Part shown: one piece after another, positions 12,758 to 52,395 of the stretch
Numbering within the stretch: the first letter of the stretch is position 1
Layout: every line of letters begins with the position of its first letter
Virus record (IMG/VR): IMGVR_UViG_3300023181_000007
Coordinates: 1-55,720 of that record
Direction: 5' to 3' (one strand)
Length of the DNA stretch: 55,720 nt
Source of the DNA: a virus
Lineage: Duplodnaviria > Caudoviricetes
The notes under the pieces: generated by a model
Database searches by the model: none
What the model was told of the DNA's origin: nothing
Seen by the model: only the letters and a program-made list of their open reading frames with translations
Program-made: the position numbers and the translations under genes

Positions 12758-12810
12758 TCCCTGTAATACAATATGTGTTGCAGGGATTTTTAATTAAAAA
12801 ACGTGGAATA

Positions 12811-13032
12811 ATGACAAATTCAAACAAAGCAGACATTGCAAAGAGAAACCAAGAAACCGAAAGAGACATACAGTTTATGATAAAAGGTTTTAAAGATGAG
12901 GGTTATGATTCTGAAAAATTAAATACAGTTCTTTTTCATGCCAATAACTTTGAACAAAGAGGAGGATCTAATGCAAACAGAAGAATGATACAGGCAGCAA
13001 AAAGGCTGTTGAGTACTCCTGAAATATTTTAA
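12811..13032 (+). CDS. hypothetical protein, first gene of cassette II
   Basis: ATG 12811 preceded by CGTGGAATAA (sRNA-complementary); start revised from 12775. Confidence 0.7.
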   Translation: MTNSNKADIAKRNQETERDIQFMIKGFKDEGYDSEKLNTVLFHANNFEQRGGSNANRRMIQAAKRLLSTPEIF

Positions 13033-13049
13033 TTAAAAACATTATTGTC

Positions 13050-13289
13050 GTGGAAAACAATTGGAAAAACTTCAATCAAAGAGCAATAGTAAACATGCAA
13101 ACTATTGTAAATGTTCATGAGCATAGAACAAATAGAATTTGTCCGTATGTAATAGAGAAAGAAACCCTATTACATTACAGCGATACAAAAATTACAATGT
13201 TCGATTATCATTTTGAACATGAGACGTATTTATTTTCAACTGACAACAAAAACATTGGGTTTGTTGCAAGTGTATTTTGCTTAAACTAA
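13050..13289 (+). CDS. hypothetical protein (GTG start inside an sRNA target site)
   Basis: TTAAAAACAT..TTGTCGTGGAA. Confidence 0.7.
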   Translation: MENNWKNFNQRAIVNMQTIVNVHEHRTNRICPYVIEKETLLHYSDTKITMFDYHFEHETYLFSTDNKNIGFVASVFCLN

Positions 13290-13317
13290 TTTATAAATCA
13301 ATAAAACTTTATTTATC

Positions 13318-14103
13318 GTGGAAACTACAAAAAAAACTATCACAGTACTTTTAATGATGATCTCATTAACTTCATTTTCTCAAACAAATTTTAATTACGG
13401 GATGGGTTCAATTGTCTCTCAAGTCATAAGCCCAACTATAGATGTAAATAGTGAGCAAACTAGTCTTTACGGAGGAAAAGGATTGGCAGCTTTTTACATA
13501 AACAAACCAATAACAACGCGTCATGATTCTTTTACCTTAGGAGGCGGTTATAAATATAGCGACGATGGTAATTTTAGCAATCCTGAATTATACGTAAGTC
13601 GTTGCGGTGCTAATGATGATCGTTTTAGAATGGCCTTAATATTTGGAATGTATAGAATAACCGGAGACAATCAGCAAACCGCAAGGGGTACAACTTATTT
13701 ATCGAGGCGCGCAAGTTATGCCGGGGCTGCTTTGTCTTATCACTTTGAAAACAATAATTACTTTGGCGTTAAAGTTGGAGACGTTTATGATGTGGCATAC
13801 ACCGACGGGAGTGACAGCGTTTATTATTTATTTGAAGCTATGACTCCAACAGCTTTCACAAACTTCAATGTTTTTGATAATGGGTTTGAAAAAGTATCTA
13901 TATACGCTCAAGCCTCTTATAATGCTGTTGAGAAAACAAAATACACCGCCGCCGTAAACTTTGAAAATGAGAGGTTGGTTTTAGGAGCTTGGGCCGACGT
14001 TAATATTGGAGCACGTGCCAAATACAAAACCGATTGGCTAGATGTTCAAGTTACTTATGAAAAAGGTTTCTTTGTTGGATTGATAATAAAAGATATACCG
14101 TAA
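13318..14103 (+). CDS. exported, probable outer-membrane beta-barrel protein (GTG start inside an sRNA target site)
   Basis: Signal peptide ...LTSFS-Q; alternating aromatic/Gly beta strands. Confidence 0.65.
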   Translation: METTKKTITVLLMMISLTSFSQTNFNYGMGSIVSQVISPTIDVNSEQTSLYGGKGLAAFYINKPITTRHDSFTLGGGYKYSDDGNFSNPELYVSRCGANDDRFRMALIFGMYRITGDNQQTARGTTYLSRRASYAGAALSYHFENNNYFGVKVGDVYDVAYTDGSDSVYYLFEAMTPTAFTNFNVFDNGFEKVSIYAQASYNAVEKTKYTAAVNFENERLVLGAWADVNIGARAKYKTDWLDVQVTYEKGFFVGLIIKDIP

Positions 14104-14552
14104 TGGATGCCTTAGATATAAGAAGCTTATCCGTTGGAAATGCTGCAATAAGCTTAAAAGGCAAATTGATTGAGCTTAATACAACTATGTTGGGGCAATA
14201 TCAGCTTTGGTTAACTAATGAACAAAAATGGCAATGCCCTTTTCAGGGAATTATCATTACAAACTTAACATTGCCAAGATTAGGTTTTGTTTTGGAGGCG
14301 GAATTAAAAACAGTTATCCCGGAGGATTTGGATTATGGAGGGTTTGAAAACGTCCACATGCACGAATTAGGCTTTGCGATCGGTTTTAAAGATAATGATT
14401 GGCGTTTGCTTACAATTCTATTTGAGCCCGGCAATACAATATTAATCTCACAGGGTAGTAAACCATTGATGTATATACATGAGATACAAAACAATTTATT
14501 TTGGGTGCATGGTGAGCATTTGGATTATCAAATAGATCAAAACGAAAAATAA
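14103..14552 (+). CDS. hypothetical phage protein
   Basis: TAATG coupling; C-terminal YIHEIQN...GEHL motif. Confidence 0.75.
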   Translation: MDALDIRSLSVGNAAISLKGKLIELNTTMLGQYQLWLTNEQKWQCPFQGIIITNLTLPRLGFVLEAELKTVIPEDLDYGGFENVHMHELGFAIGFKDNDWRLLTILFEPGNTILISQGSKPLMYIHEIQNNLFWVHGEHLDYQIDQNEK

Positions 14553-14569
14553 ACTAAATCTAAAATAGT

Positions 14570-14665
14570 ATGATAGGTAAATTCATAATTGGCGTAATAT
14601 TGGGGTTTTGTATTTGCGTTGCTGCAAGTGCATTGATCGGTTTAGTAATAATAATATTTTGGTAG
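14570..14665 (+). CDS. 31-aa single-pass membrane peptide (not in the ORF track)
   Basis: MIGKFIIGVILGFCICVAASALIGLVIIIFW; A-rich leader; ends 1 nt before the next ATG. Confidence 0.55.
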   Translation: MIGKFIIGVILGFCICVAASALIGLVIIIFW

Positions 14666-14666
14666 C

Positions 14667-15302
14667 ATGAAAAATAAAACAGTAAAAAAGCTCATTAAAA
14701 AGCAGCTTAAGACAAAAGAGGCTTTAATTGATGCAAAAAATGGAATGATAAAGTTTTTTAATTTTATAACCCTGTTTTTGTGTTGTTGGTTCTTTGCTTG
14801 TTTAATAGCGGGAATAAATATTAAAGATGATACTTTAGAAATAGCATCTTACGTAAACGCATCGGCAATTATAATATGGCTGTTGTTTGTATTTTGTTAC
14901 AATTACTCACTTTCAAAAAAAATATCTAAAAGTGATATTGCTCTTGAGGAATTGGTTAAATCATGGAACTTTGGAGAGAAAAAATATAAATCTAAAAAAA
15001 CACAGCCTTTACACGTTAAAAATAGTTGTCTTAATCCTGTTATTCAGGAGGGGGATGAGGAGTATAGATATAGGGTTACAGCATTGGCAACATACATAAC
15101 TGTTAACCATGATTTAGATGCAGCAATAAATAAAATAATCCTTTGGCTAGATAATACCCCTCTTAGCCTTGATGATTTAGAAAAAATATTTAATTCATTT
15201 ACTGCAAATACTATTATAAAACACAGCAATCTAATTGAGATATATTCCAATAAAGACGTTGATTATATAATTGATGAAATACAAAAAGAAGCTAACAAAT
15301 AA
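14667..15302 (+). CDS. two-TM membrane protein
   Basis: Two hydrophobic segments followed by a soluble domain. Confidence 0.7.
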   Translation: MKNKTVKKLIKKQLKTKEALIDAKNGMIKFFNFITLFLCCWFFACLIAGINIKDDTLEIASYVNASAIIIWLLFVFCYNYSLSKKISKSDIALEELVKSWNFGEKKYKSKKTQPLHVKNSCLNPVIQEGDEEYRYRVTALATYITVNHDLDAAINKIILWLDNTPLSLDDLEKIFNSFTANTIIKHSNLIEIYSNKDVDYIIDEIQKEANK

Positions 15303-38452: not shown

Positions 38453-38455
38453 CAA

Positions 38456-38818: not shown

Positions 38819-39070
38819 ATGCCACAAGAGAAAATTTTAATCAAACCGGAAGATGTTAGTATTGATGTAAAACTAGCAATTGAAGAGTATCGAAAAAAAC
38901 ACCCGGAACTAAAGGATAAGACGCAAAAAGCCCTTGCCTTAGAAATCAAAACGACTATGGACACTTTCGTAAAATGGAAAAAGAACCCGCCGAAAGTGAT
39001 TGCAGACCTTTTAAATATCGCTGCAATTTGCGAATGTGAAATAACAGACTTTGTTAAAAAAAAGAATTAA
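38819..39070 (+). CDS. Cro-like HTH transcriptional regulator
   Basis: TQKALALEIKTTMDTFVKWK...IAAICECEITDF. Confidence 0.75.
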   Translation: MPQEKILIKPEDVSIDVKLAIEEYRKKHPELKDKTQKALALEIKTTMDTFVKWKKNPPKVIADLLNIAAICECEITDFVKKKN

Positions 39071-39081
39071 AAAATTAAAGT

Positions 39082-40146: not shown

Positions 40147-41050
40147 ATTCAAATGCAGAGCCTCTAAAGTTGGGGCTATAATGACAGAGCCTAAAGAAAA
40201 AAGCAATCTTGATAAATACATAGAAGCCAAAGAGAGGCTTAAGGGTCTTGAGGTTCGATTAGCGGCGTTTAAAGACCAACAATGTAAATCCGCATTAAAA
40301 ATAAAAAACGAGACAATACCGGGCTTAAAAATAACAATTCACAACTTGGAAAATGTTAAGCATATAAAACAGCTTTCCGAAACCTGTAAAACTTACTTGC
40401 GTGAATGGATAATTGAGAGAAAGTACGGGAGGAAAAAAGAATTTACAAGTAAGCCAATAGAAAAAGGCAATGCAACAGAGCAAGACGGATTTCAATTAAT
40501 TCAAGATGTTTTGTTTCCAAATGTATTTTTACCTAAGAGCCGTAATTTTTATGAAGATGATTACAAAACAGGAAATCCCGATGTTGAAATACTTGGTTTT
40601 GTAATAGACAACAAAAGCAGTTACAACATTTTTACATTTCCATTTGGTGAAACTGAACTAACAAACAAAGACAATATTTATCAAATTCATACGTACATGG
40701 ATCTGATAAAGGTTGAAAAAGGAAAAGTTTGTTATACGTTAAATGATACCCCTTTTTCTATAGTAGATAAAGAGCTTAAGGATTGGGCTTGGAAAAATGA
40801 CGTTCCCTATGATCAGATTCCGGAGGATAAGGCCTATGAAATAATTAAGAACCACATATATACTAAAGAGGGACTTAAGATGTACAACTTTGTCCTTGGT
40901 ACTTTAGATACATCCGATTTCGTTGAAATACCGGCGGAAAAGAGACTTATAAGCTTTGACTTTGAAAAGGATGAGGAGCTTATACAGGCAATAAACCAAC
41001 GTTGTATTGATTGTGATGCTTGGGTTAAAGAAAATTGGGATAAATTTTAA
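40130..41050 (+). CDS. YqaJ/lambda-exonuclease-like nuclease
   Basis: RASKVG, KGNATE, GNPD...IDNKSS, YQ...YM. Confidence 0.8.
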   Translation: MQQPIKFKCRASKVGAIMTEPKEKSNLDKYIEAKERLKGLEVRLAAFKDQQCKSALKIKNETIPGLKITIHNLENVKHIKQLSETCKTYLREWIIERKYGRKKEFTSKPIEKGNATEQDGFQLIQDVLFPNVFLPKSRNFYEDDYKTGNPDVEILGFVIDNKSSYNIFTFPFGETELTNKDNIYQIHTYMDLIKVEKGKVCYTLNDTPFSIVDKELKDWAWKNDVPYDQIPEDKAYEIIKNHIYTKEGLKMYNFVLGTLDTSDFVEIPAEKRLISFDFEKDEELIQAINQRCIDCDAWVKENWDKF

Positions 41051-41052
41051 TT

Positions 41053-41883
41053 ATGAATGTTAGGAACAATTTAAGGCGGGATTTTACTCAAACACCAAAC
41101 GAGTTAATAAATAACGATTCTATATCGAGACATGCCCGGTTTTTATTTGTTTGGTTATGTAGTAAGCCCGATAATTGGGAGTTTTACAGTCAGGGAGTAA
41201 ATAAGGCTTTAGGCTGCAAAGATGATGCTAGGCGTAAATACATGAAAGAGCTTTATGACACAGGTTGGATTGATGTTTGCCAAAAAAGGAATCCGGACGG
41301 GAGTTGGGCGGCAAATGACATAATATTAAATTCAAGTCCTGTTTTACCCGTATCGGAAAAAATCGGCGACGGTAAAAAACCCGAACCGGTAAAAAATGGG
41401 GACGGAAAAAACCCCACACATAGTAATACTATAGATAATAATAATACTTTAAAAAAAGAAATTAATAATACTAAAGAATCTTTGTCCCTTTTTCAAAGCG
41501 ACGCCGTTACTCCGGAGGATGATTTTAAATCTATTTCTTTTGATTTGCCAAGTTTACCGGAGGAAATATTACAATACCTAAATGAAAAAAAAGGAGGTAA
41601 AAAAGGTTTTGAAATTAAATCGGCATCTAATCAAATAGATATAAAGGCGCGTATAAAAGAAAAAAAATACACGCTTGAGGATTTTAAGAAAGTTATTGAT
41701 TTTAAAGTAAGCGAGTGGAAAAACGACCCTAAAACGAGACAATGGTTGAGGCCCGAAACGTTATTTGGTAAAAAGTTTAATGGTTATCTAATAAATGCAG
41801 AGGATAGCAAAGACAATTTAACCGCCGCCGGTGGTTCTCAAAACTTTGTTGATTCTGTATCATCAAGCGAAGATTTATTATGA
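41053..41883 (+). CDS. replication initiator (N-terminal HTH, conserved phage C-terminal domain)
   Basis: FTQTPNELIN...SKPDNW; WLRPETLFGKKFNGYL. Confidence 0.85.
   Translation: MNVRNNLRRDFTQTPNELINNDSISRHARFLFVWLCSKPDNWEFYSQGVNKALGCKDDARRKYMKELYDTGWIDVCQKRNPDGSWAANDIILNSSPVLPVSEKIGDGKKPEPVKNGDGKNPTHSNTIDNNNTLKKEINNTKESLSLFQSDAVTPEDDFKSISFDLPSLPEEILQYLNEKKGGKKGFEIKSASNQIDIKARIKEKKYTLEDFKKVIDFKVSEWKNDPKTRQWLRPETLFGKKFNGYLINAEDSKDNLTAAGGSQNFVDSVSSSEDLL
41354..41475. repeat. putative replication origin: four iterons plus an AT-rich tract
   Basis: CGG(T)AAAAAA at 41354, 41370, 41387, 41403, inside the initiator gene. Confidence 0.7.
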
Positions 41884-42944
41884 CACAAGAAAATAAAAAA
41901 TTAAAGCCCTCCGAAATAGCCTTTGATAGATTCAAAGAGGAGGCCGAATTGTTTTTTGTGAAAAAATTCATAACGAGCAACTCCATACAAAGCAAGTATA
42001 GTTTTTGTTTGGATGTTTTCTTTGAGTTAGATAATAACCCTGAAATTGAATACGGGAGAGGTATAATCATGTATAGCCCTCATTACGGCCAAGGCAAATC
42101 ATTTTTTTTCGATGTTATTGAACACCGTTGCAGACGTATAGAAAACCGAAACATTTTTAAAAGAACAACCGCAAAAGATTTGGTTACTTACTGCATTGAA
42201 AACGGGGAGGATGCTTTAAAAGACTTCATTAAGGTTAAAAACCTGTACATTGATGATATTGGTGATGAGGGTGATAATAAAAACTTTCAAATCAAGAAAA
42301 GTAAAAACATGATTAATGTTTTGAGGTTTGTTCTTTTGTATCGTTATGAAATGTGGGTTAAACATGGTTGGAAAACTTACGGAACCACAAATTTAAATAT
42401 TGATGAGTTAGCAAGATGTTACGACGGCCGATTATCTGACAGGATAAAACAAATGGTTCATTGGGTTGATGTTGAATTTCTAAAAAATGGCAAATCATTT
42501 AGACAGTACGAGGGCACAAGAAAACTAACCCAAAATGAAATTGCCCTTAACTACAAAAAGATAGCTCCCAAGGAAAAAGAACCGGAAGCCCCCGACACGA
42601 CAAAATATCTTAATGATTTAATTAATGAAAGTCATGAATACATTAACCGTATGGGATGGGTTGATTGGAAATTAGTGAAAACATTATTGATTGACAGGAA
42701 ATTATTAGACTATACCGACTTTATGTTTACAGATAATCAGCTAGAACACGCCGAATTTGTTTTAAAACATGACATTGTAGATACTGTAAAATTCCTGCTT
42801 AGAGATACAGACAGAGAGGTGAGGCTTGCGGAAAGGCAAAGGAGGCTTGCCGATGTTGGAGATAAAGAGATTACCGACATGGCAGCTACTATAGTTGCAA
42901 AGCAAAAGTTTATTGAATTAAGGGATAACGAACACAAATTTTAA
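41880..42944 (+). CDS. DnaC/IstB-like P-loop ATPase (helicase loader)
   Basis: YGQGKS, LYIDDIG, TTNL, RLSDRIKQM. Confidence 0.75.
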   Translation: MTQENKKLKPSEIAFDRFKEEAELFFVKKFITSNSIQSKYSFCLDVFFELDNNPEIEYGRGIIMYSPHYGQGKSFFFDVIEHRCRRIENRNIFKRTTAKDLVTYCIENGEDALKDFIKVKNLYIDDIGDEGDNKNFQIKKSKNMINVLRFVLLYRYEMWVKHGWKTYGTTNLNIDELARCYDGRLSDRIKQMVHWVDVEFLKNGKSFRQYEGTRKLTQNEIALNYKKIAPKEKEPEAPDTTKYLNDLINESHEYINRMGWVDWKLVKTLLIDRKLLDYTDFMFTDNQLEHAEFVLKHDIVDTVKFLLRDTDREVRLAERQRRLADVGDKEITDMAATIVAKQKFIELRDNEHKF

Positions 42945-42945
42945 A

Positions 42946-43125
42946 ATGGATTTAATTTTAGATCAACCAATTCAGGTGAGCAAAAAACAATACGATCAGG
43001 TTAAAAATACACATGATGGTTATGTTTTCTTTAGGCAAGATCAGCAAACGGGAAATTATTATATCAAAGTGGCCTTTAAGTCACATTTAAAAGCCGTTGC
43101 ATTAACATTAGAAAAATACAAATAA
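42946..43125 (+). CDS. 59-aa hypothetical protein (not in the ORF track)
   Basis: MDLILDQPIQVSKKQY...; TAATG coupling to the resolvase. Confidence 0.6.
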   Translation: MDLILDQPIQVSKKQYDQVKNTHDGYVFFRQDQQTGNYYIKVAFKSHLKAVALTLEKYK

Positions 43126-43646
43126 TGGAAAGGACAATAATAGGCATAGACCCCGGAAAAGGCGGCGGAATAGCCATAATTAAAAAAGGTCGTGCCTATG
43201 CTGTCTCTATGCCGGCAACATTACCACAACTTAACGAATACCTGAAAGATATAAGAAACAATAACGATGAGATCATTGCATTCGTTGAAAAGGTTCAGAT
43301 ATTCGATAGTGACGATAAAGAGGACGGTAAAAAGTACGGTATTAAAAAAATGCTAGATCAATTTGCAGAGTTAAAAAGCTGTTTGGTTTTTCATAATATA
43401 CCATTTGTTGAAGTGGCTCCAATTACTTGGCAATCGGAACTTTGTTTAACTTCAAAGGGAGATACAAAAGCAGTACGTAAAAATAAATACAAGTTATTTG
43501 CGGGTAGGACTTTCCCGGATGCCAAGGTTAATCTAAATACATCCGATGCTCTTTGCATTTCTTATTTTGGAATTCAAAGATTGAAATTAAATCCCGGTTG
43601 GGTTAATGAAAGGATTGTAAAAAAGAAAACAGATTTATTTAAATAA
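43125..43646 (+). CDS. RuvC-like Holliday junction resolvase
   Basis: IIGIDPGKGGGIA, FVEKV, VAPITWQ, SDALCI. Confidence 0.8.
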   Translation: MERTIIGIDPGKGGGIAIIKKGRAYAVSMPATLPQLNEYLKDIRNNNDEIIAFVEKVQIFDSDDKEDGKKYGIKKMLDQFAELKSCLVFHNIPFVEVAPITWQSELCLTSKGDTKAVRKNKYKLFAGRTFPDAKVNLNTSDALCISYFGIQRLKLNPGWVNERIVKKKTDLFK

Positions 43647-43685
43647 TAATATTTTATTGATAGTAATAATATTTTATTATATTTG
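43644..43685 (+). promoter_or_regulatory. promoter with tandem TAATAA-N4-TTATT(A/G) operators
   Basis: Copies at 43644-43659 and 43664-43679; TATATTTG 43678-43685. Confidence 0.75.
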
Positions 43686-43713
43686 CTACAGTAAAAACAT
43701 AAACATTTATATC

Positions 43714-44049
43714 GTGGAAAATATAAAATCAATGTTATTGCAAAATCTGCAAGACATAAATCAACTAGCTGACCCTCACAAATCAGATGAACATATTGCC
43801 CTTACATCAACTTATTTTGATGAATCAACTCAAGATAACTATGAGCTAATAGTTGAGTTAATAGCTTATAAAAGCGAAAGAGAAGAGCCGGGAACTTATC
43901 ACAGCGATAGAGGCGACGTTGAGGGGCATGGCTTTTATAATGTAATTACTTCAATAGAGATTCAACAAATTTATATATTCATGAATTTTGAGGATGAACC
44001 ACAATTCAAAATAACCAACCAAGAAGCTGTTGAGGCTATAAAATTTTAA
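43714..44049 (+). CDS. acidic hypothetical protein (GTG start inside an sRNA target site)
   Basis: In-frame GTG in TATCGTGGAA; the track start 43657 lies within the promoter. Confidence 0.7.
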   Translation: MENIKSMLLQNLQDINQLADPHKSDEHIALTSTYFDESTQDNYELIVELIAYKSEREEPGTYHSDRGDVEGHGFYNVITSIEIQQIYIFMNFEDEPQFKITNQEAVEAIKF

Positions 44050-44051
44050 TA

Positions 44052-44375
44052 ATGGAAATAGAAGATTTAAAAACCCGCCAAGAGTTCAACGCCTATTATA
44101 GGGCTAATCACATGGACTTATTCGATTTTAATGAAATTGATTTTTATGGCAAACCTGACATTGAACAAAACGCATATTATTTGGCTTTTCTTGAGTCAAA
44201 AGGGATAATTGTTTATCCGGGTATTAAGAAAAAAATTGAAAATAAATTCTTTGCGGTCGTGTATTTTAATGAAACGCTTAAGATTTCAACATTAGGTTCA
44301 AATTTTCCTAAAGCAAGTGATGCGGTTGCGTATGGTATTAAATATGCATTTAAAATATTAATCAAAAAACAATAA
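44052..44375 (+). CDS. hypothetical protein
   Basis: ORF. Confidence 0.7.
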   Translation: MEIEDLKTRQEFNAYYRANHMDLFDFNEIDFYGKPDIEQNAYYLAFLESKGIIVYPGIKKKIENKFFAVVYFNETLKISTLGSNFPKASDAVAYGIKYAFKILIKKQ

Positions 44376-44378
44376 CTT

Positions 44379-44639
44379 ATGAGGGCAATTGATTTCCCCG
44401 GAGCAAACATTACATTAACAAAGCCTAGCACTATGACAGATGAGGAGTGCACACCGTTAAGGGCGCAAACAGGCGTTAACCAAAGCGGTTTTCCTTACTT
44501 CATTACAGCATGGATGCCAAATGTTGATGATTTGAAAGCCATAAACGAGGGCAAGCCTATTTATTTGAACATGCTAGGTTTACAGTTCCAACCTAGCAGT
44601 TTATTTACTTTAAACGAAAATGGAGAAGCAAATGAGTAA
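44379..44639 (+). CDS. hypothetical phage protein
   Basis: MRAIDFPGAN...KP..MTDEEC motif. Confidence 0.7.
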   Translation: MRAIDFPGANITLTKPSTMTDEECTPLRAQTGVNQSGFPYFITAWMPNVDDLKAINEGKPIYLNMLGLQFQPSSLFTLNENGEANE

Positions 44640-45168
44640 GGCAAGAACATTTTCAAGAACTTTCCCGGTTGGGCATGATTCAGCAGGAAATAAAACGCTT
44701 TTCGTTGAAAAGATATTAAATACCTTAGACATAAATTATAGTTCAATAAGTTATAAAAATTGGCTAATAAACAACAATCCCAATATTGACGAAAAAACAA
44801 TAAATGATTTTTTTGATAACCTTGAGCAAACCGATAAAACAAAGTCACATACTGTTAGAAAAGGTCAAAGTATTAAAAAAGGTGAATTAGTCAGTTTTAG
44901 GGTTTGGAGTGAAAAACCTTATAGATCAAAGCAAATTAAATTTGCTCCGGATATTAAGGTAAATATCTTTCCTGTAAAGTTTGATGATTTAGGATTTGTT
45001 TATTTAAATGACTCTCCGGATTATTTAAAACATGATAAGCAATCTATTCTTGCCAAAAACGACGGATTAACAAACATTGAGTTTATGAATTGGTTCTTTT
45101 TGAGGCAAAAACCATTTAAAGGTTTTGAGGGGCAAGTTATTTGTTGGGATTCTAAAATTGAATATTAA
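44632..45168 (+). CDS. ASCH/PUA-like domain protein
   Basis: KSHTVR, WSEKPYRSKQ, LAKNDGL...FMNWF. Confidence 0.55.
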   Translation: MSKARTFSRTFPVGHDSAGNKTLFVEKILNTLDINYSSISYKNWLINNNPNIDEKTINDFFDNLEQTDKTKSHTVRKGQSIKKGELVSFRVWSEKPYRSKQIKFAPDIKVNIFPVKFDDLGFVYLNDSPDYLKHDKQSILAKNDGLTNIEFMNWFFLRQKPFKGFEGQVICWDSKIEY

Positions 45169-45184
45169 TTTAAAATTACATACA

Positions 45185-45862
45185 ATGAGCGAAAAAAAGG
45201 AGGGCGAAAAAATACGTTTCGTCAATTATGAAAACTTTTTATTGAAAAAGTTAACCTATAATGAAAAGCAACAATTGCTTGTTATAGATTGGGAAGAGAA
45301 AACAGGGACCAAGGACGGGCACCAAGATAAACCAAAAGACGTGCCTCATCCGGATTTGTTAGCAGCTTTGGACGCTTTAAAGCCTCACTTATCAAGAACT
45401 TTAGGTTTACAACAGGGTTGGGACTTTGCTAGGGAAAATGTAAAAGAGAATGGCGACGCCCTTAAGCAAGCAATGGCAGGAGCCAAGTCCGCCGATAATT
45501 CAGTTAAGGTTATCGGTATTGTTATGATGGGAGAGGGAGAGACAGAGGGCGTTAAAATAAATGGTTTTATGCAATGCTTAAACGGCCAAATGAAAGTTAA
45601 TTGCCCGGTTATTCGTTTTGGTTCCGATGCAATGGCTATTGAAAAAACTGTTGAGGGACTTATTGAAAAGGTAAAGATTGAGGCGTATGGCTTTTTACAC
45701 CAAAACAAACGCAAGCAATATAGTATTGAAGAGCAAGAGGAAATTGACCGTAAGAAACTAAAGAAACGCGGCATTTCTAAAAACCAAATGAGCATTCTTG
45801 ATGGAGAGCAACAGGATGCAGCTAAAGAAATTGAAGCTACAGCCGAGGCGGATCTTAATTAA
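45185..45862 (+). CDS. hypothetical protein
   Basis: PHPDL motif; start revised to ATG 45185. Confidence 0.75.
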   Translation: MSEKKEGEKIRFVNYENFLLKKLTYNEKQQLLVIDWEEKTGTKDGHQDKPKDVPHPDLLAALDALKPHLSRTLGLQQGWDFARENVKENGDALKQAMAGAKSADNSVKVIGIVMMGEGETEGVKINGFMQCLNGQMKVNCPVIRFGSDAMAIEKTVEGLIEKVKIEAYGFLHQNKRKQYSIEEQEEIDRKKLKKRGISKNQMSILDGEQQDAAKEIEATAEADLN

Positions 45863-45866
45863 TAAC

Positions 45867-45889
45867 AAGGGGCTTTTATGCCCCTTTTT
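45867..45889 (+). terminator. intrinsic terminator
   Basis: AAGGGGC-TTTTAT-GCCCCTT plus T-run. Confidence 0.75.
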
Positions 45890-45900
45890 AAATTAGAATT

Positions 45901-46050
45901 ATGAAATCATTTTTTCATTTTATATGGGTGCTTATTGTGATTATAGGCGCAGCATTTCTAACCTGTATTTTGTATTGCTTGAGGTTATTGGCTAGGATAG
46001 TTTATTTTTGGAAAAGAGCACCTTGGATAGTTGGTAAATCAAAACTTTAA
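45901..46050 (+). CDS. 49-aa membrane peptide (not in the ORF track)
   Basis: MKSFFHFIWVLIVIIGAAFLTCILY... Confidence 0.5.
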   Translation: MKSFFHFIWVLIVIIGAAFLTCILYCLRLLARIVYFWKRAPWIVGKSKL

Positions 46051-46053
46051 AAA

Positions 46054-46515
46054 GTGAAACAAAAAACCCATAAAAATTGCGCAAACCCGAATTGCAACAA
46101 AGAGTTTAAATTGTATAATTCAACACAAAAATATTGCTCATATTCTTGCCAATTAGAGGTTGAGGGAAGAAAAGAAAAAAAAGTACAAAAGAAAATAAAT
46201 CCTATTTCTGAAAAGAGAAAAGCGGAAAAACCTATTTACGATTTAAAAAGAGACGCTTTTTTATCTTTGGAGAAAAATAAATTTTGTAAGGTTCACGGAA
46301 AAAATTGTACAAAAATTGCAACAACTGTTGAGCATAGAATGGGAAGACGTGGTTTTGCGGATGATTGGGCAAGAGATAACAAAATTAGCCTTTATATTGA
46401 TGAAAGGTTTTGGTTGGCATCATGCAACCCTTGTAACTTAGAGTTAGAAAACAATCCCGAATTATCATATCAATTTCAATTATCAAAAATACATGGCGGC
46501 AAGAAATTCAAATAA
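46054..46515 (+). CDS. Zn-finger/HNH-like protein (NinG-like)
   Basis: CANPNC...YCSYSC; C..C...TVEH...SCNPCN. Confidence 0.6.
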   Translation: MKQKTHKNCANPNCNKEFKLYNSTQKYCSYSCQLEVEGRKEKKVQKKINPISEKRKAEKPIYDLKRDAFLSLEKNKFCKVHGKNCTKIATTVEHRMGRRGFADDWARDNKISLYIDERFWLASCNPCNLELENNPELSYQFQLSKIHGGKKFK

Positions 46516-46702
46516 CAACGCACCCAATACACCCCCGGAGACAATTGTTGATGTAGTATCAACAAAAGGGGATAAAGTCATTGTTAACTCCATGACTCAC
46601 GGCCAAGCAATTTTATTGAAGTCAAAAAACGGTTGGGTAAATAAAATATATCAACCCGGTTATCATGGGTATAAAACTAATATAGAAACTAAAAAAACAT
46701 AG
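46493..46702 (+). CDS. hypothetical protein
   Basis: Overlapping ORF. Confidence 0.55.
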   Translation: MAARNSNNNAPNTPPETIVDVVSTKGDKVIVNSMTHGQAILLKSKNGWVNKIYQPGYHGYKTNIETKKT

Positions 46703-46706
46703 TAGT

Positions 46707-47120
46707 ATGGATTTATTCGGTAGGATTAAAGTAATAGGCGAAACCACGACTTATGGCGAAAGTGGTTTTAGAAAAAGGGAAATAGTTATAACAACTGACG
46801 AGCAATACCCCCAAACGATACTAATTGAGTTTACTCAAGACAAATGTGATTTGTTGAATAGCTTTACAATTGGTCAACCCGTTAAAGTAGCTTTTAACGT
46901 AAGGGGGAGAGAATGGGTTAACCCTCAAGGAGAGACAAAGTATTTTAACCAAATACAAGGTTGGAGGATTGAACTACTGGCAGCAGCAGGGGCACCCGTT
47001 CAGCAAGGTTATCAAGGACCGGGAAGCGCGGCGGATGCTTACCATAATAACCAAACAAATACTAACCCTCAAGCCGGGTCAAATAACTCGGAGGAAGAGC
47101 ACGACGATCTCCCATTTTAG
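46707..47120 (+). CDS. single-stranded DNA-binding protein (DUF3127-like)
   Basis: FRKREIVITTDEQYPQ, GREW, QGWRI; acidic DDLPF tail. Confidence 0.85.
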   Translation: MDLFGRIKVIGETTTYGESGFRKREIVITTDEQYPQTILIEFTQDKCDLLNSFTIGQPVKVAFNVRGREWVNPQGETKYFNQIQGWRIELLAAAGAPVQQGYQGPGSAADAYHNNQTNTNPQAGSNNSEEEHDDLPF

Positions 47121-47121
47121 C

Positions 47122-47147
47122 AAAGCCCCAATTGAGGGGCTTTTTTT
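47122..47147 (+). terminator. intrinsic terminator
   Basis: AAAGCCCC-AATTGA-GGGGCTTT plus T-run. Confidence 0.85.
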
Positions 47148-47159
47148 ATTTAAAATAAA

Positions 47160-47204
47160 TAATAAAATATATTTGTTTTAAATAATAATATTTTATTATA
47201 TTTG
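47160..47204 (+). promoter_or_regulatory. promoter with TAATAA-N4-TTATTA operator
   Basis: Palindrome 47183-47198; TATATTTG 47197-47204. Confidence 0.75.
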
Positions 47205-47235
47205 ACGTGTGGAATAATAACAAAAACATTGTATC

Positions 47236-47529
47236 GTGGAAAATACAAAAACAATCTCAACACGTTCAGGTGCGTTAAAATCTGATGATCAATTAAGGGC
47301 TTATATAAACAAAAACTTTATTATTCGTTGGCGAATGAAAGGAGATAAAAAAAGTAATCTTATTTCCGCCGGTAAATTTGTAAAGTTATTGCAGGACAAA
47401 ACAAGCATGGTCACAATTACCCCGGAGGAAACAAAACAAAAATACTTTGATAAAGTGATTAACGGTCGAAAGTATCGTTATGACTTTTTGATAATGGGTA
47501 TTTTACAAGTTCAATTTATATCTAAATAA
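47236..47529 (+). CDS. basic hypothetical protein (GTG start inside an sRNA target site)
   Basis: AAAAACAT..TATCGTGGAA. Confidence 0.7.
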   Translation: MENTKTISTRSGALKSDDQLRAYINKNFIIRWRMKGDKKSNLISAGKFVKLLQDKTSMVTITPEETKQKYFDKVINGRKYRYDFLIMGILQVQFISK

Positions 47530-47580
47530 AAAAAAGCTAAATCACTACTAAAATATAATAATAAGCTAAAAATTAAAGCT

Positions 47581-48126
47581 ATGTATAAAGGTAAAGAATG
47601 TTGCCAAGGGTGTGGCAAAGACGGCACACAAAAACCAAGATACTCAAAAGATAAACTTTGTGAAGATTGCAAAAAAATAATGGAATTAGGTAAAGCGGTT
47701 ACATCCGAGAGTCTTGTTGAATATGTAAGAGTTAGAGACTGGTATAATGGGCTTTCATCTTGGGGATTTGATGATAATACCTTAAATAAATTTGCAACAG
47801 CAGTATTAGAGCGTATAAACAACCCAAACGCACCAACTAAAGGAGAGTTAACATTGAGGGCTAACACGGGTCATAGTACTGTATTTTATACGGTGCCAAA
47901 AGCATTTGCAGAGCCTTTTATTGAATTTGTAAAAATTTTAAACGAAGTTGTTAGAGATATAAAAAAACAAAAAGAGGATATTTCAATACAAGCCAAAAAC
48001 GCAGTTAGGAATGAGAAAAATGAAATATTCAACTTAGGAGTTGAAGCCGGGAGAGATTTATTAATGCAGCTTAACCGGGGTGATATAACTATAGATCATT
48101 TTAATAAAACGGTAATCAAATATTAA
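47581..48126 (+). CDS. hypothetical protein with N-terminal zinc finger
   Basis: CQGC...CEDC. Confidence 0.75.
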   Translation: MYKGKECCQGCGKDGTQKPRYSKDKLCEDCKKIMELGKAVTSESLVEYVRVRDWYNGLSSWGFDDNTLNKFATAVLERINNPNAPTKGELTLRANTGHSTVFYTVPKAFAEPFIEFVKILNEVVRDIKKQKEDISIQAKNAVRNEKNEIFNLGVEAGRDLLMQLNRGDITIDHFNKTVIKY

Positions 48127-48128
48127 TC

Positions 48129-48560
48129 ATGATTCAATATACTAAAGAAAACCCCGGAGGGCCTTACTCAATGCTTAAATATCTTTCAGAGATTAGCGGC
48201 ATAAGTTTGAGAAAAGAATTAGAGTTTGACTCTATGGATAAGCTAAGGCGAAAAAACGGCTCAAAAACCAAATCTAAAAGCTACCTCATTTATAATGCTT
48301 ACGATATAAAAGTTGTTATAAATGGTGAAATAATTCCTTACATGATACCCGGCCCGTCTTTTGGTGATTGGCGTTTTGATAATGTTTACAAGGACACCCC
48401 GGAGAAGTTTATTGTTACGGTTGATAGGTCTTATGAGGAATTCGGAATTGAAATAAAACCCGCCGGAACTTATAACGATAGCTTAGGCGGCGGTTGGAGT
48501 AGCAAAATAGATTTGTATAATATAAACGGCAATTACTTTGCCCCTGACATGGAGGTTTAG
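48129..48560 (+). CDS. hypothetical protein
   Basis: ORF. Confidence 0.7.
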   Translation: MIQYTKENPGGPYSMLKYLSEISGISLRKELEFDSMDKLRRKNGSKTKSKSYLIYNAYDIKVVINGEIIPYMIPGPSFGDWRFDNVYKDTPEKFIVTVDRSYEEFGIEIKPAGTYNDSLGGGWSSKIDLYNINGNYFAPDMEV

Positions 48561-48562
48561 AA

Positions 48563-49273
48563 ATGGGTAAAAATTTCAACACAAACACAGACAATAATGA
48601 TGTGTGGTTAACGCCTCCATCATTGATAAAAAGCTTAGGTAATTTTGATCTTGACCCATGCAGCCCAATAAATAGACCTTGGGACACGGCAAAAAATCAC
48701 ATGACTATTGACGACGACGGTTTATTACTGCCTTGGTTTGGCCGTGTATGGCTTAATCCTCCTTACGGCAATCAGCTTGGCAAATGGCTTGAGAAAATGG
48801 CATTGCATCAAAACGGAACCGCTTTAATATTTGCACGAACCGAAACAACGGCAATGCAATACTATGTTTTCCCTCATGCCGAAAGCATTCTATTTATAAA
48901 AGGCCGAATTAATTTTCATTATCAAGACGGCCGTGTTGGGGATCGGGCAAACGCCCCAAGTATATTGATTGGCTATAATGAGTATAATTCGGACATGATC
49001 GAGCAAAGCGGAATACAAGGGCATCACATAAGCCTTAGACCAAAAATATTTATAGCGGGCATTTCTTTAGATCAAAACAAAACTTGGCGCGTTATAGTAG
49101 GAGAAGTTTTGGAGGAGTTAAACCGGGAGGCAACATTAACCGATATATACGAAACCGTTATAAAGTTAGCTCCGGAAAAAGTACGTAAGAATCAAAACTA
49201 CAAGGCTAAAATAAGACAGGTTTGCCAACAACATTTTGATAGAATTTCAAAAGCCACTTATAAACTAAATTAA
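48563..49273 (+). CDS. phage Dam-family N6-adenine DNA methyltransferase with C-terminal winged-helix-like extension
   Basis: WLTP, FDLDPC, DGL, VWLNPPYG, ARTET, KGRINF. Confidence 0.88.
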   Translation: MGKNFNTNTDNNDVWLTPPSLIKSLGNFDLDPCSPINRPWDTAKNHMTIDDDGLLLPWFGRVWLNPPYGNQLGKWLEKMALHQNGTALIFARTETTAMQYYVFPHAESILFIKGRINFHYQDGRVGDRANAPSILIGYNEYNSDMIEQSGIQGHHISLRPKIFIAGISLDQNKTWRVIVGEVLEELNREATLTDIYETVIKLAPEKVRKNQNYKAKIRQVCQQHFDRISKATYKLN

Positions 49274-49278
49274 CCATC

Positions 49279-49485
49279 ATGATAAACAAAGACCAAGTAC
49301 AGGCAACACCAACATTTAAATCGTTGGATGCTTTACAGCAAAAGTTAATTCTTAATAAAGAGACTTTTGAGAAAATCCAAAACGGCGTTAATGTGGCTAA
49401 ACACAAAGGGATTGAGCTTTACATTAAAGATCACAACCCCGCGCCAAGAGTATTGAGTATTGTAACCGAATTATTAAAATCATAA
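49279..49485 (+). CDS. hypothetical protein
   Basis: ORF. Confidence 0.65.
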   Translation: MINKDQVQATPTFKSLDALQQKLILNKETFEKIQNGVNVAKHKGIELYIKDHNPAPRVLSIVTELLKS

Positions 49486-49486
49486 A

Positions 49487-49819
49487 ATGAAATTATCCAA
49501 ATACGAGGCGTTTTTAGAAAACGCTAAAAGAGATCAAAAATCTTTTAACTCTCATGTTGAAAAAATGAAAGGAAGCGGATCTTTTGAATTTAAAGAATTG
49601 GCAGAGAAATTATTTGAGTTGCAAAATAAGCTAAATAATGCTTTGATTGTTTATTTGTTTTCTAATGATAAAAACGATAGACTTATTGAGCATATAGTAA
49701 ATAAATATTTGGAAAAACATAGAAATATATTGCTTTTCCTTTTTGCTTTGGATAATGAAATGAGGTTTTTCATTTTGCATGAGCTAAAGACAAATCAAAA
49801 CTTATTTTCAAACTGTTAA
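49487..49819 (+). CDS. hypothetical protein
   Basis: ORF. Confidence 0.7.
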   Translation: MKLSKYEAFLENAKRDQKSFNSHVEKMKGSGSFEFKELAEKLFELQNKLNNALIVYLFSNDKNDRLIEHIVNKYLEKHRNILLFLFALDNEMRFFILHELKTNQNLFSNC

Positions 49820-49830
49820 AATAAATTCAA

Positions 49831-51102
49831 ATGAAGTACATTAAAATTAAAAATGATGGTATAATAGAGCCGGAGGCTTTACATCTAATGGGAGCATCTA
49901 CAAAAGTGGGTGATAGTTCTAAAATAGGCCAATTTGGTTCCGGCACGAAATACGCTTTGGCTTATCTTTTACGTAATAATTATGAAACCTTTATTTACGC
50001 AGGGTTAAACCCTATATCGGTTAATACACAACCTAAGAATTGGAAAGATAAAACATTTAACGTTATTTACATTGATGGCAAAGAAACGTCAATAACTACC
50101 GACATGGGTAAGGATTGGAGAATGTGGCAAGCTTTGAGAGAGATATATTGTAACGCAATAGATGAGGGCGGTGTTATAATGGAATTTGTGGCAGAAATGG
50201 CACCAAAAGAAAATGAAACTCATTTTTATATAGAAAACAAAGATGATGCGTTGAGCTTTACACAAAACTTCAATGATTATTTTTCTCAAAACAAAGAGGT
50301 TTTGTTTGAATGTGAGTTTGGCAGAATTCTAAAGAAAACAGGTGAAAAAGCGAACATATACAGAAAAGGAATAAAGTGTTTTGAAACAAACAAAACTAGT
50401 GTATTTGATTATGATTTCAATGATATACTCATAGACGAAAATAGGCTCGTAAGATATTTTTGGACCGTTGAGGAAAAGATTTGGCAATTAATATATCAAT
50501 GTGATAATAAAGATGTAATAATTGAAGCCTTAAGAGGTGCTAAAAATGAAAATTCTATTGAGGGCACTATATCTGAATATGCAAGCATTCAAAATAAAAT
50601 ATCTAATCAATTTAAAGAGGTGATTGATGAAAATGAATTAATGCCAAAGAGTTTTGATATTGATGATAATTCGGATGATAAAAGTATATACATGCCAACG
50701 CTTTTATTTAAAAACATTTATTCAGCAGCAGGAAAAGAAAGTTTCGCTAATGATTATACAATAAATGAAGATGGGACACTTTACAAATTAATTCCATCTA
50801 AAAACGAATACGATCTCAAAATAAATGAATGTTTGGAGTTTTTTGATAAACACAACTATTCTATTGACTTCCCTATTGAGATAGCTAAATTCGACAAATC
50901 GGGTGTTTTGGGTTGCGCTCATGAGGGATGTATTTTATTAAGCGAAAAGGCTTTTGATCAAAACATAAATGATTTATGTAATACTATAATTGAGGAGCAG
51001 ATTCATTTAAAGACAGGAGCAAAAGATAAAACAAGGGAATTCCAAACCGCAATAATTGATGAATTGCTTAATTATATGGTAACGCAAAGAGAAATATCTT
51101 AA
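49831..51102 (+). CDS. GHKL (HATPase-like) protein with C-terminal zincin-like segment
   Basis: MGASTK...IGQFGSGTKYA; REIYCNAIDE; NTIIEEQIH. Confidence 0.7.
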   Translation: MKYIKIKNDGIIEPEALHLMGASTKVGDSSKIGQFGSGTKYALAYLLRNNYETFIYAGLNPISVNTQPKNWKDKTFNVIYIDGKETSITTDMGKDWRMWQALREIYCNAIDEGGVIMEFVAEMAPKENETHFYIENKDDALSFTQNFNDYFSQNKEVLFECEFGRILKKTGEKANIYRKGIKCFETNKTSVFDYDFNDILIDENRLVRYFWTVEEKIWQLIYQCDNKDVIIEALRGAKNENSIEGTISEYASIQNKISNQFKEVIDENELMPKSFDIDDNSDDKSIYMPTLLFKNIYSAAGKESFANDYTINEDGTLYKLIPSKNEYDLKINECLEFFDKHNYSIDFPIEIAKFDKSGVLGCAHEGCILLSEKAFDQNINDLCNTIIEEQIHLKTGAKDKTREFQTAIIDELLNYMVTQREIS

Positions 51103-51104
51103 TA

Positions 51105-51314
51105 ATGAAAAACACGCTAAAAGATTGGCCGGATATACGGGATGGTACACGCGGACTTAGATCAATAGATGTTTTGATTTACATTAAAAAAATTGATCAA
51201 CATTTTATTGGTTGGTTTGACTTTTCAGAAATGAAATGGAAAACAGATAGCGGAGAGATTTTATATAAAGGTTTCCGTTGGCGAAAACTAGATTTAAAAA
51301 CAGATAAATATTAA
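51105..51314 (+). CDS. hypothetical Trp-rich small protein
   Basis: ORF. Confidence 0.6.
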   Translation: MKNTLKDWPDIRDGTRGLRSIDVLIYIKKIDQHFIGWFDFSEMKWKTDSGEILYKGFRWRKLDLKTDKY

Positions 51315-51317
51315 AAA

Positions 51318-52061
51318 ATGCAAATAAGTAAACCTATCGTTTTTTTCGACTTGGAGACTACGGGCAAAAACCCGGAGATTGATAGGATTGTTGAGATAGC
51401 AGTTATTAAAATAAACCTAGACGGGCAAAAAGAGGAAAAAAGGTATCTTTTAAATCCAAACATAGAAATACCTCCGGAGGCAACTTTGATACATGGCATA
51501 ACTAATGAAATGGTTGCAGACCGGCCAACGTTTAAACAAATATCAAAAGCCTTGTTTTCCTATCTTTCAGATTGTGACCTTGCCGGATATAATTCTGATC
51601 GTTTTGATATTCCTTTATTATCTACTGAATTTCAAAGAGTAGGTTTAATATATCCCAATCCCGGCACAAATCAAGTTGATGCATATAAACTATATACGTA
51701 TCATTACCCCAATACATTGGAGGCTGTATATGAGAGAATATTTGGAGATAAATTGGACGGAGCACATGGGGCACATGCCGACACAAATGCAACCGTAAAG
51801 ATTTTATTTCATTTGTTAGATAAATTCTATAGCGATGATGTAACACCTCAACAGCTTGATGATTTATTGCAGGGAGATAAAAAACGTGTAGACAATTCTC
51901 AAAAATTGTATCGTAATAGTGCCGGGGAGGTGTGTTGGGCATTTGGACCAAATAAAGATTCGCCGGTATTGAGTAACTTAGGTTTTTTAAATTGGGTATT
52001 GAGTAAAGATTTCCCGGAGGAAACTAAAGGGATATTAAGGCAGCTAATAATAAATTCCTAA
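51318..52061 (+). CDS. DEDDh 3'-5' exonuclease (DnaQ-like)
   Basis: FFDLETTG, GYNSDRFDI, AHGAHAD. Confidence 0.92.
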   Translation: MQISKPIVFFDLETTGKNPEIDRIVEIAVIKINLDGQKEEKRYLLNPNIEIPPEATLIHGITNEMVADRPTFKQISKALFSYLSDCDLAGYNSDRFDIPLLSTEFQRVGLIYPNPGTNQVDAYKLYTYHYPNTLEAVYERIFGDKLDGAHGAHADTNATVKILFHLLDKFYSDDVTPQQLDDLLQGDKKRVDNSQKLYRNSAGEVCWAFGPNKDSPVLSNLGFLNWVLSKDFPEETKGILRQLIINS

Positions 52062-52062
52062 A

Positions 52063-52287
52063 ATGAAAGTCGTTTACAAATCTGAAAGCCCAACGCCAAA
52101 TAATAAAATTCATTATTATAAATGTGATCATTGTTCTAAGGAATTCGGATATGACGAAAATAATTGCGCTAATCAAATGGTTATGCCGCCGATTAAGGAA
52201 ATATTAAAAAACCCATACACAGCACACGAGAGTTATAAATATTGGTGCAAGGATTGTGTGATAGAATTAAAAATAAACCCGACTTAA
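52063..52287 (+). CDS. small zinc-finger protein
   Basis: CDHC...CKDC. Confidence 0.65.
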   Translation: MKVVYKSESPTPNNKIHYYKCDHCSKEFGYDENNCANQMVMPPIKEILKNPYTAHESYKYWCKDCVIELKINPT

Positions 52288-52302
52288 ATAGTTGGGTTTT
52301 TT
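52275..52302 (+). terminator. intrinsic terminator overlapping a stop codon
   Basis: AAACCCGAC/GTTGGGTTT plus T-run. Confidence 0.7.
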
Positions 52303-52324
52303 ATTTTAAAAATATTTTAAAAAA

Positions 52325-52369
52325 TAATAATATATTATTTGGTATAATAATAAAATATAATTACTTTTG
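52325..52369 (+). promoter_or_regulatory. promoter with two degenerate TAATAA-N4-TTATTA operators
   Basis: Copies at 52325-52340 and 52348-52363; TACTTTTG 52362-52369. Confidence 0.65.
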
Positions 52370-52395
52370 ATGAGTGGAATAACAAAATACAAAAC

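Follow-up and report, generated by a model that had tools for sequence, protein, structure and literature searches.

A candidate phage-encoded antisense RNA and two classes of putative pairing site in the gene leaders of a Bacteroidota-type siphophage

The question raised by virus record IMGVR_UViG_3300023181_000007 is why three of its gene leaders hold the same nine bases, which read as a GTG start codon, one glutamate codon and a TAA stop, and why the reverse complement of these bases opens a putative small intergenic transcription unit elsewhere on the genome. The window analysed here is the complete record, 55,720 bases with direct terminal repeats. On the + strand the element, GTGGAATAA, starts at 12803, 47209, and 52374; positions 38458-38466 hold its reverse complement. 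A sequence-only reading had proposed that the three copies are two-codon open reading frames (ORFs) which pair with a small RNA (sRNA) and may couple translation to the next gene. With moderate confidence, and judging from complementarity and placement, we take the GTGGAATAA elements to be sites of a second class for pairing with an antisense RNA of 72 nucleotides (nt) that the phage would encode at 38457-38528. The first class would comprise seven GTG-start genes whose start codons lie within the match.

The element is repeated beyond chance. In the whole window, both strands counted, there are four copies against a mean of 0.80, and 2 of 100 dinucleotide shuffles reached four. Three copies fall in the non-coding set (3218 nt in 41 segments, made of intergenic DNA and the first 9 nt of genes), where none of 5000 mononucleotide shuffles reached three and the shuffle maximum was one. 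Although 63 nine-mers have at least three copies in these 3218 nt, those with at least three G/C form only three groups, namely terminator stems, the CGTGGAAA family, and GTGGAATAA. The bare hexamer GTGGAA is not enriched (19 copies vs. 21.95 expected); it is split 18:1 between the + and - strands, and leaders or start codons hold 11 of the 18 + strand copies.

Site 1 of this class, CGTGGAATAA at 12802-12811, is a perfect 10-nt complement of sRNA nt 2-11 (38458-38467), with a duplex of -15.2 kcal/mol. The predicted transcription start (+1), at 12762, is about 41 nt upstream of it, and it adjoins ATG 12811; the last A of its TAA (12809-12811) is also the first base of the ATG (12811-12813), giving the TAATG overlap described earlier. 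After the portal gene, at 12750-12791, a hairpin of CCCTG (12759-12763) and CAGGG (12781-12785) followed by ATTTTT straddles the predicted +1; it would act as a terminator for upstream read-through, and transcripts from the local promoter would be without its 5' arm. Site 2, GTGGAATAA at 47209-47217, is a perfect 9-nt complement of sRNA nt 2-10 (-13.4 kcal/mol) and starts on the predicted +1 of the promoter with the -7 box at 47197-47204. Taken with the preceding base as TGTGGAATAA (47208-47217), it is placed as previously claimed, 3-4 nt past the TATATTTG box and 27 nt before the GTGGAA of gene 47236. The first 23 nt of this leader, counted from GTGGAATAA, resemble by eye the first 21 nt of gene 47236 if two 1-nt gaps are allowed, and the site may be a tandem copy of that gene start. 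Site 3, GTGGAATAAC at 52374-52383, is a perfect 10-nt complement of sRNA nt 1-10 (-15.7 kcal/mol). It starts on the predicted +1 of the promoter with the box at 52362-52369 and precedes ATG 52396 by 22 nt. Its longer form GTGGAATAACA (52374-52384), 4 nt past the TACTTTTG box, is indeed the 11-nt reverse complement of 38456-38466 that had been reported. Duplexes of the three sites are in the range of the first-class seeds (-13.6 to -16.9 kcal/mol).

The partner of these sites, a candidate trans-acting sRNA of 72 nt on the + strand, is delimited by a promoter box, a terminator and a fold, and lies between the gene end at 38298 and GTG 38605. The -7 box TATATTTG at 38445-38452 predicts +1 at G38457. 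A tool-called intrinsic terminator at 38497-38529 has a 10-pair stem (38497-38522) followed by a T run. The predicted fold of three hairpins has -20.2 kcal/mol and z = -5.27, and none of 200 shuffles was equally stable. It is composed of a weak 5' hairpin of nt 1-16, which is the putative seed, an A/U middle hairpin holding nt 32-42, and the terminator hairpin. As the 5' hairpin has only -1.3 kcal/mol, the seed is effectively open and stem invasion would hardly be needed. At nt 32-42 (38488-38498) lies a putative second pairing segment, whose complement is the TTAAAAACATA box found in the target leaders. The hexamer TTCCAC occurs once on the + strand of the window, within this unit. The longest + strand frames of the unit, 26 and 31 codons, both run past the terminator and no credible ORF is present, so that by its own predicted promoter and terminator it reads as a free-standing sRNA unit. 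The only frame opened by ATG (38455-38535, 26 codons) was rejected as a peptide gene of 26 residues because it ends beyond the terminator T run and its ATG straddles the predicted +1; if transcription began two bases earlier, this ATG would be a leaderless AUG. In the reverse orientation the unit resembles a leader, with TTAAAAACAT, 22 nt, and TTATCGTGGAATAAC. Rfam gave no match at the gathering score anywhere in the window, c4 RNA of phages included; on 37500-38650 the best sub-threshold scores were 15.9-22.4 bits against gathering scores of 40-104, and c4 was absent at E <= 10.

What looks like a second small promoter-to-terminator unit lies at 37557-37640. It has two overlapping -7 boxes at 37557 and 37571, a nine-codon GTG GAA frame (37578-37607), and a terminator hairpin at 37606-37634, and folds with -18.6 kcal/mol (z = -3.68). 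Its GTGGAATTAC agrees with the complement of the seed in 9 of 10 positions and would form a duplex of -12.6 kcal/mol. This unit could be a further target, an sRNA sponge, or a leader peptide.

The first class of site is formed by a motif around GTG start codons. CGTGGAA has 11 copies in the window vs. 3.59 expected, a count reached by none of 100 shuffles. The longer form (T)ATC-GTG-GAA-AAY has seven + strand copies, and these are in-frame starts of ORFs 4027, 13050, 13318, 38605, 43714, 47236, and 53299. The motif is thus carried by seven of the eight GTG-start genes, with the GTG always in frame. ORF 38605 has no in-frame ATG anywhere, while the first one stands at codon 135 of 173 in ORF 4027 and at codon 33 of 97 in ORF 47236; in all, three or four motif-bearing genes are without a usable ATG. 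Because most GTG-start genes carry the motif and several of them have no usable ATG, it is tied to translation starts and not to a DNA position.

At these seven starts the motif, (TT)ATCGTGGAA, matches sRNA nt 5-15, and a TTAAAAACATA box matching nt 32-42 stands just upstream, in most leaders 3-10 nt before the GTG. At 4011-4032, an 11-nt box complement (4011-4021) precedes ATCGTGGAA (4024-4032) over GTG 4027. At 13033-13055, a 10-nt box complement is followed by TCGTGGAA over GTG 13050. The 11-nt TTATCGTGGAA at 13313-13323 covers GTG 13318, where the second match is instead a 10-nt complement of sRNA nt 24-33 at 13273-13282. The target at 38585-38610 combines AAAACATA with TCGTGGAA over GTG 38605, and that at 43692-43719 a 10-nt box complement with TATCGTGGAA over GTG 43714. 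At 47222-47241, in the leader that also holds site 2 of the second class, AAAAACAT is combined with TATCGTGGAA over GTG 47236. The last target, 53284-53304, has AAAAACAT and TTATCGTGGAA over GTG 53299. All are on the + strand.

According to an upstream-context matrix trained on the other 82 genes, the seven GTG starts score 5.1-7.6, which corresponds to the 72nd-96th percentile of real starts. GTG 43714 scores 6.8, against 0.8 for ATG 43732 and 3.2 for TTG 43657. The latter was rejected as the true start on this score, and its frame also spans a 21-nt copy of the promoter that is clearly non-coding at 47184-47204. The 43714 frame begins MENIKS, as does its 64%-identical homologue P0003. Similarly, ATG 53248 was rejected in favour of GTG 53299 (-2.5 vs. 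6.1).

The complementarity of the seed to unlinked gene starts was assessed against all 55,705 + strand windows of 16 nt, with start regions taken as -45 to +12 and a perfect complement required with stacking of -14 kcal/mol or lower. The six windows starting at 38453-38458 rank first. They find perfect complements in 10 of the 91 start regions, while the best windows elsewhere find them in five, so that by this count the candidate seed matches several unlinked mRNAs at or near their starts beyond chance. The tenth region holds CGTGGAAT at 950-957, an 8-nt seed complement (-13.2 kcal/mol) inside gene 498-983 and 20 nt before start 976; this match may be due to chance.

The second segment gives a signal of its own. 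AAAACAT, the complement of sRNA nt 33-39, is found within -30 to +3 in seven of nine target genes and in three of 83 others (Fisher p = 4.6e-7), and in eight of the nine the boxes stand in the order that antiparallel pairing demands. Among the targets the reversed order is that of site 3, where AAAACAT (52391-52397, +) overlaps ATG 52396 and lies downstream of the site, whereas in class I targets the box stands upstream. Perfect matches of at least 10 nt to sRNA nt 23-46 occur in four of nine targets vs. one of 82 other genes. When the first 40 nt of the sRNA were shuffled, none of 300 sequences equalled the nine targets found for the actual RNA at a cut-off of -15 kcal/mol (maximum six). Through this second segment matching a second box, the case for the putative sRNA is stronger than the sequence-only reading knew. 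A k-mer screen of all loci for analogous pairs of motif and antisense was too noisy for use.

When aligned on GTGGAA, class I sites read TATC-GTGGAA-AATA and class II sites GTGGAA-TAA(C/T). In TTATC-GTGGAA-TAAC, the reverse complement of the seed, the left flank is that of class I and the right flank that of class II. Accordingly the complementary span is sRNA nt 5-15 in class I and nt 1-11 in class II, and both share GTGG(AA), which is the complement of the loop CCAC and two stem bases. Class I sites are complementary to the loop and the 3' arm and class II sites to the 5' arm, which agrees with the earlier claim that both arms are used. Loop nucleation, as proposed there, is compatible with this arrangement and is not required by it, and the stem invasion invoked with it would scarcely be called for.

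The promoters were read according to the TAnnTTTG box, which is placed at -12 to -5 in Flavobacterium psychrophilum (PMC9723704). Boxes of this Bacteroidota sigma-A type are found at 12750, 38445, 47197, and 52362, among 18 intergenic boxes in the window. By the box-position rule, the predicted +1 is G47209, G52374, and G38457; with these bases two of the class II sites and the sRNA begin. G stands at the predicted +1 in only these three of the 18 intergenic promoters, A in 14, and T in one. At 47209 and 52374 this base is the G of the GTG, and both would be leaderless GTGs; leaderless starts favour AUG in Escherichia coli. Their share is 3.7-5.5% of mRNAs in two Bacteroidota species, and the typical leader (mode or median) in two Bacteroidota species is 23-24 nt. 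The leaders implied here are 18-27 nt long for five of six site-bearing promoters and fit this typical length.

Site-bearing promoters have their -7 boxes at 3990, 12750, 38575, 43678, 47197, and 52362, and all six carry spacer inverted repeats with arms of 6-8 base pairs (bp). The earlier claim that every operator-bearing promoter has an sRNA site in its leader holds in outline; among eight other gene-proximal intergenic promoters, only the one at 36190 has 6-bp arms. A/T-only palindromes arise easily by chance in this DNA. The promoter before 4027 (3940-3997) has four AGTAC(T/C) copies instead of the ATAATA..TATTAT palindromes of the other five, which suggests a different operator.

The favoured explanation can be put as follows. 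The nearly unstructured first 16 nt of the sRNA would serve as seed, and seven C-GTG-GAA-A genes would pair with its nt 5-15 across the start codon; most of their leaders would also pair, via the upstream AAAAACAT box, with sRNA nt 32-42. The leaders of 12802, 47209, and 52374 would pair with seed nt 1-11 instead. The first of these duplexes would end at the A of the ATG, the second would lie 27 nt before the class I site of the same leader, and the third would span -22 to -13 of a 22-nt leader. Pairing could keep the 30S subunit off short leaders devoid of a Shine-Dalgarno sequence, a block that has been shown for GibS in Bacteroides, or could alter decay that depends on the 5' end. In the two cases at +1 the first ten bases of the mRNA would pair with the first ten of the sRNA, and a duplex of both 5' ends could also change decay. 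We infer transcription from 38457, pairing with nine leaders, a 30S block, and repression as the steps of this control. The nine leaders are those of 4027, 12811, 13050, 13318, 38605, 43714, 47236, 52396, and 53299, and by this scheme the first gene of each of the six operator-type promoters, together with three internal genes, would come under one RNA. The whole scheme, a virulent-looking Bacteroidota siphophage with a regulon of one 72-nt RNA, in which GUG-GAA starts lie inside the duplex, the AAAAACAU box is bound by the second segment, and ATG genes are reached via the other half of a near-palindromic seed, is put forward tentatively.

Several points weigh against this explanation. Among 400 natural 40-nt + strand windows, 54 also attain nine or more start regions with duplexes of -15 kcal/mol or lower, an effect of loose pairing between U-rich sequence and A-rich leaders. 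The duplex-energy ranking, in which the nine genes have -15.4 to -19.0 kcal/mol, the next -13.2, and the median gene -6.3, is therefore no evidence when taken alone, and the seed is singled out by the perfect-match statistic only. The starts 12811, 43714, and 53299 were chosen by us, partly because of the motif; for 43714, a PHROG match drops from 34.8 to 22.2 bits once the 19 upstream codons are removed. Conservation in class I goes beyond the paired part, as TATCGTGGAAAATA occurs three times and pairing gives no account of it. The exact box-to-site spacing that the promoter-adjacent sites share is likewise not predicted by RNA pairing. Use of the promoters, +1 positions and terminator is predicted. 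Two class II sites begin at the predicted +1, so that their presence in the RNA depends on the true start. The sequence-only reading would have given up the sites at 47208 and 52374 if they lay upstream of the start, and on the predictions they stand on a knife edge: G47209 and G52374 are exactly on +1, while T47208 and T38456 are at -1 and outside the RNAs. A true start 2-3 nt further downstream would remove the GTG and cut the duplex to 6-8 bp. Finally, the seed, the motif and the synteny were seen in none of the relatives compared at the DNA level.

Conservation of class I on both sides of the paired part, TATCGTGGAAAATA included, would fit an RNA-binding protein or a sequence-specific ribonuclease recognising (C)GUGGAA in leaders. 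T4 RegA, a translational repressor, and T4 RegB, a ribonuclease that cuts, are models for such a protein. The unit at 38457 would then be an inverted copy of a leader, either non-functional or with another function, and the leader-like reverse complement of the unit fits an inverted duplication. A functionless inverted copy is, however, not expected between a well-spaced consensus promoter and a strong terminator, nor with z = -5.3. The Pfam scan, in which 65 of 69 unassigned proteins had no match at E <= 0.001, offered no candidate for the protein, and among the matches listed an AAA domain alone reached the curated cut-off. We consider a protein of this kind an unlikely explanation.

The shared spacing speaks for a DNA element instead. 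All three promoter-adjacent copies, those at promoters 38445, 47197, and 52362, stand exactly 4 nt past the -7 box, and this is the main argument for taking GTGGAATAAC as an element at +1 to +10, active in either orientation, whether as a site for a phage or host protein or as an initially transcribed sequence tuning promoter escape, with complementarity as a side effect. The same promoters are the ones with G at the predicted +1, and their exact placement is not demanded by pairing. The copy at 12802, however, is far downstream of the +1 of its promoter, and in the seven class I sites the same GTGGAA core is placed on start codons, of which 13050, 13318, and 53299 have no promoter close by. 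A DNA element also leaves unexplained why 10 of 11 copies are on the coding strand, why the GTG is always in frame, and why a second complementary segment exists, and we hold it to be quite unlikely.

The model of the sequence-only reading in full, in which GTG-GAA-TAA is translated, termination feeds ribosomes to the downstream ATG or GTG, and the sRNA acts through the mini-ORF on genes with no GTG-GAA start of their own, appears improbable. In its favour, seven real genes start in exactly the context C-GTG-GAA, the 14 nt that precede 12803 are nearly identical to those ahead of start 13050, all three stops are TAA, and one of them forms the TAATG overlap at 12811. The context scores of the three GTGs, however, are 1.0, 1.5, and -0.4, which is the 9th-20th percentile of the 82 training starts, far below the range of the class I GTGs. 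ATG 12811 and ATG 52396 score equally low (1.2 and 1.4, about the 18th percentile), which makes the context test weak and help from an upstream ORF conceivable. With a GTG at 47209 or 52374 the RNA would begin on the start codon itself. From stop to following start there are 0, 13, and 18 nt, and a coupling overlap exists in one case only. The TAA is not independent evidence, because complementarity to UUA of the seed dictates it; any perfect complement of the seed UUAUUCCAC necessarily reads GUGGAAUAA. Translation of the two-codon ORFs and coupling have no independent support. Most simply, the start-Glu-stop reading is a by-product of pairing, and the mini-ORFs would be an unneeded extra. Taken alone, the mini-ORF claim is of little consequence as long as ribosomes are not demonstrated at these GTGs.

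The nearest precedent for coupling would be c4 and icd. The target of c4 RNA is the region where ribosomes bind at icd, a small upstream ORF that must be translated for the downstream gene. It differs in that it serves one operon, from which c4 itself is processed, in its role in lysogenic immunity, and in that icd is a real protein gene and not a two-codon ORF. Like the candidate, it is an antisense RNA of phages directed at phage genes (P1 and P7, icd-ant operon; PMC8201110). The window differs from these phages in that scans of its proteins detected no integrase or repressor.

In E. coli, start codons followed by a stop were shown to bind ribosomes and to lower expression of the host gene slightly, and tuning of the neighbouring frame and damage limitation were suggested as their roles (bioRxiv 10.1101/520783). 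They are like the mini-ORFs in that placement of the start leaves next to no elongation. They differ in that their stop follows the start directly and in that they lie inside genes with a Shine-Dalgarno-like sequence upstream. The three sites of the window have a sense codon, GAA, between start and stop; they lie in leaders, two of them would be leaderless, and they are known from sequence alone. Damage limitation might likewise hold for a GTG whose presence is due solely to the demands of the sRNA site, and a stop just after such an unwanted GTG may limit out-of-frame translation.

That the repeats are functionless remnants of leader duplication is very improbable: the likeness of 47209-47231 to the first codons of gene 47236 and of the 14 nt before 12803 to those before 13050 would fit it, but the copies differ in their flanks both before (AAAC, ACGT, ATGA) and after, shuffles did not give three copies, and unselected decay would not preserve 9-11 nt perfect to one partner.

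Relatives of the phage offered little for comparison with the proposed pairing. No cultured phage matched 38000-42000 by megablast. The 354-amino-acid gene at 39082 has 80 relatives in IMG/VR with up to 79% amino acid identity, but synteny is absent upstream of the gene; the relatives show no enrichment of CGTGGAA (43 copies on + and 19 on - in 770 kilobases (kb)), and five near-complete ones have no excess of TCGTGGAA. For the portal, the identity of relatives is at most 48% in viral contigs and at most 50% in metagenome contigs, the latter on short pieces only. No relatives were found of the 207-amino-acid gene upstream of the sRNA, and homologue searches with proteins 12811 and 47236 led back to proteins of the window alone. 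Among DNA patterns, the exact 16-nt seed had four unrelated matches in viral contigs, TTTG-N4-seed had none in metagenome contigs and none in genome contigs, the two-part start-site pattern gave 34 single matches, apparently by chance, and the 21-nt operator-promoter string five unrelated loci. No match to the 43714 protein came from cultured phages. Its homologue P0003, of 111 residues, is on seven contigs, the longest 56,118 nt, and is the only sign of a related phage; it was not found in the viral contigs or genome contigs searched.

Small-RNA regulation in Bacteroidota is barely charted. A literature search for phage-encoded small RNAs in this phylum gave nothing relevant as judged on titles and abstract openings. 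GibS of Bacteroides thetaiotaomicron (PMC7366714), the one characterised trans-acting sRNA of Bacteroidota, has a single-stranded 5' seed and pairs through two regions across start codons without Hfq. It shares with the candidate the likely host phylum, initiation not led by Shine-Dalgarno sequences, and no obvious Hfq or ProQ. It likewise has an intergenic gene with its own promoter and intrinsic terminator and two seed regions for pairing over the start codon of several mRNAs, features that are predicted for the candidate; the outcome for GibS is repression. GibS differs as a chromosomal RNA of about 145 nt acting on metabolic genes, whereas the candidate is of 72 nt, phage-borne, directed at the phage's own genes, and read from sequence. 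The targets of the candidate, unlike those of GibS, share a hard-wired GTG-GAA start, and there is no sequence or Rfam relationship between the two RNAs.

The kind of regulator is known, a trans-acting antisense sRNA; new would be that it is phage-borne, has the phage's own genes as targets, and has start codons within a two-class, two-segment match. If the explanation is true, one RNA would serve about ten sites on one 55.7-kb genome and its seed would match the start codon as well, a compact case open to testing from sequence alone. At the RNA level it would correspond to the proteins that repress translation of early genes in phages, here in a phylum without Shine-Dalgarno start selection, and could show how translation can be controlled where that sequence is absent. 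A simple pair of RNA and leader could also be of use for engineering expression in Bacteroidota.

The gene set across the window is that of a tailed siphophage, with all 92 retained gene calls on the + strand. In order, the small terminase is at 3228, the large terminase at 9683, the portal at 11281, the major head protein at 16836, the tape measure at 21783, the endolysin at 36971, and the replication block at 38605-52287. Neither family assignment nor the Pfam scan of the window proteins detected integrase or repressor families, and whole-window Rfam and tRNA scans were empty; the phage is virulent-looking. We infer a siphophage of Bacteroidota type, and a member of Bacteroidota as its host, from the 18 intergenic TAnnTTTG boxes, the base composition at start sites, and the kinship of the terminase. 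At gene starts, G is almost missing at -20 to -1 and A peaks at -14 to -10 and at -3. The closest large terminases of cultured phages aligning over most of the query are 32% identical and belong to Bacteroides and Phocaeicola phages.

The coding regions have a strong codon-pair bias. Pro-Glu is encoded 21 times by CCG-GAG and never by CCA-, CCT-, or CCC-GAG. Of 14 + strand copies of CCGGAGGA, 13 are in frame 0. A DNA methyltransferase gene was identified at 48563.

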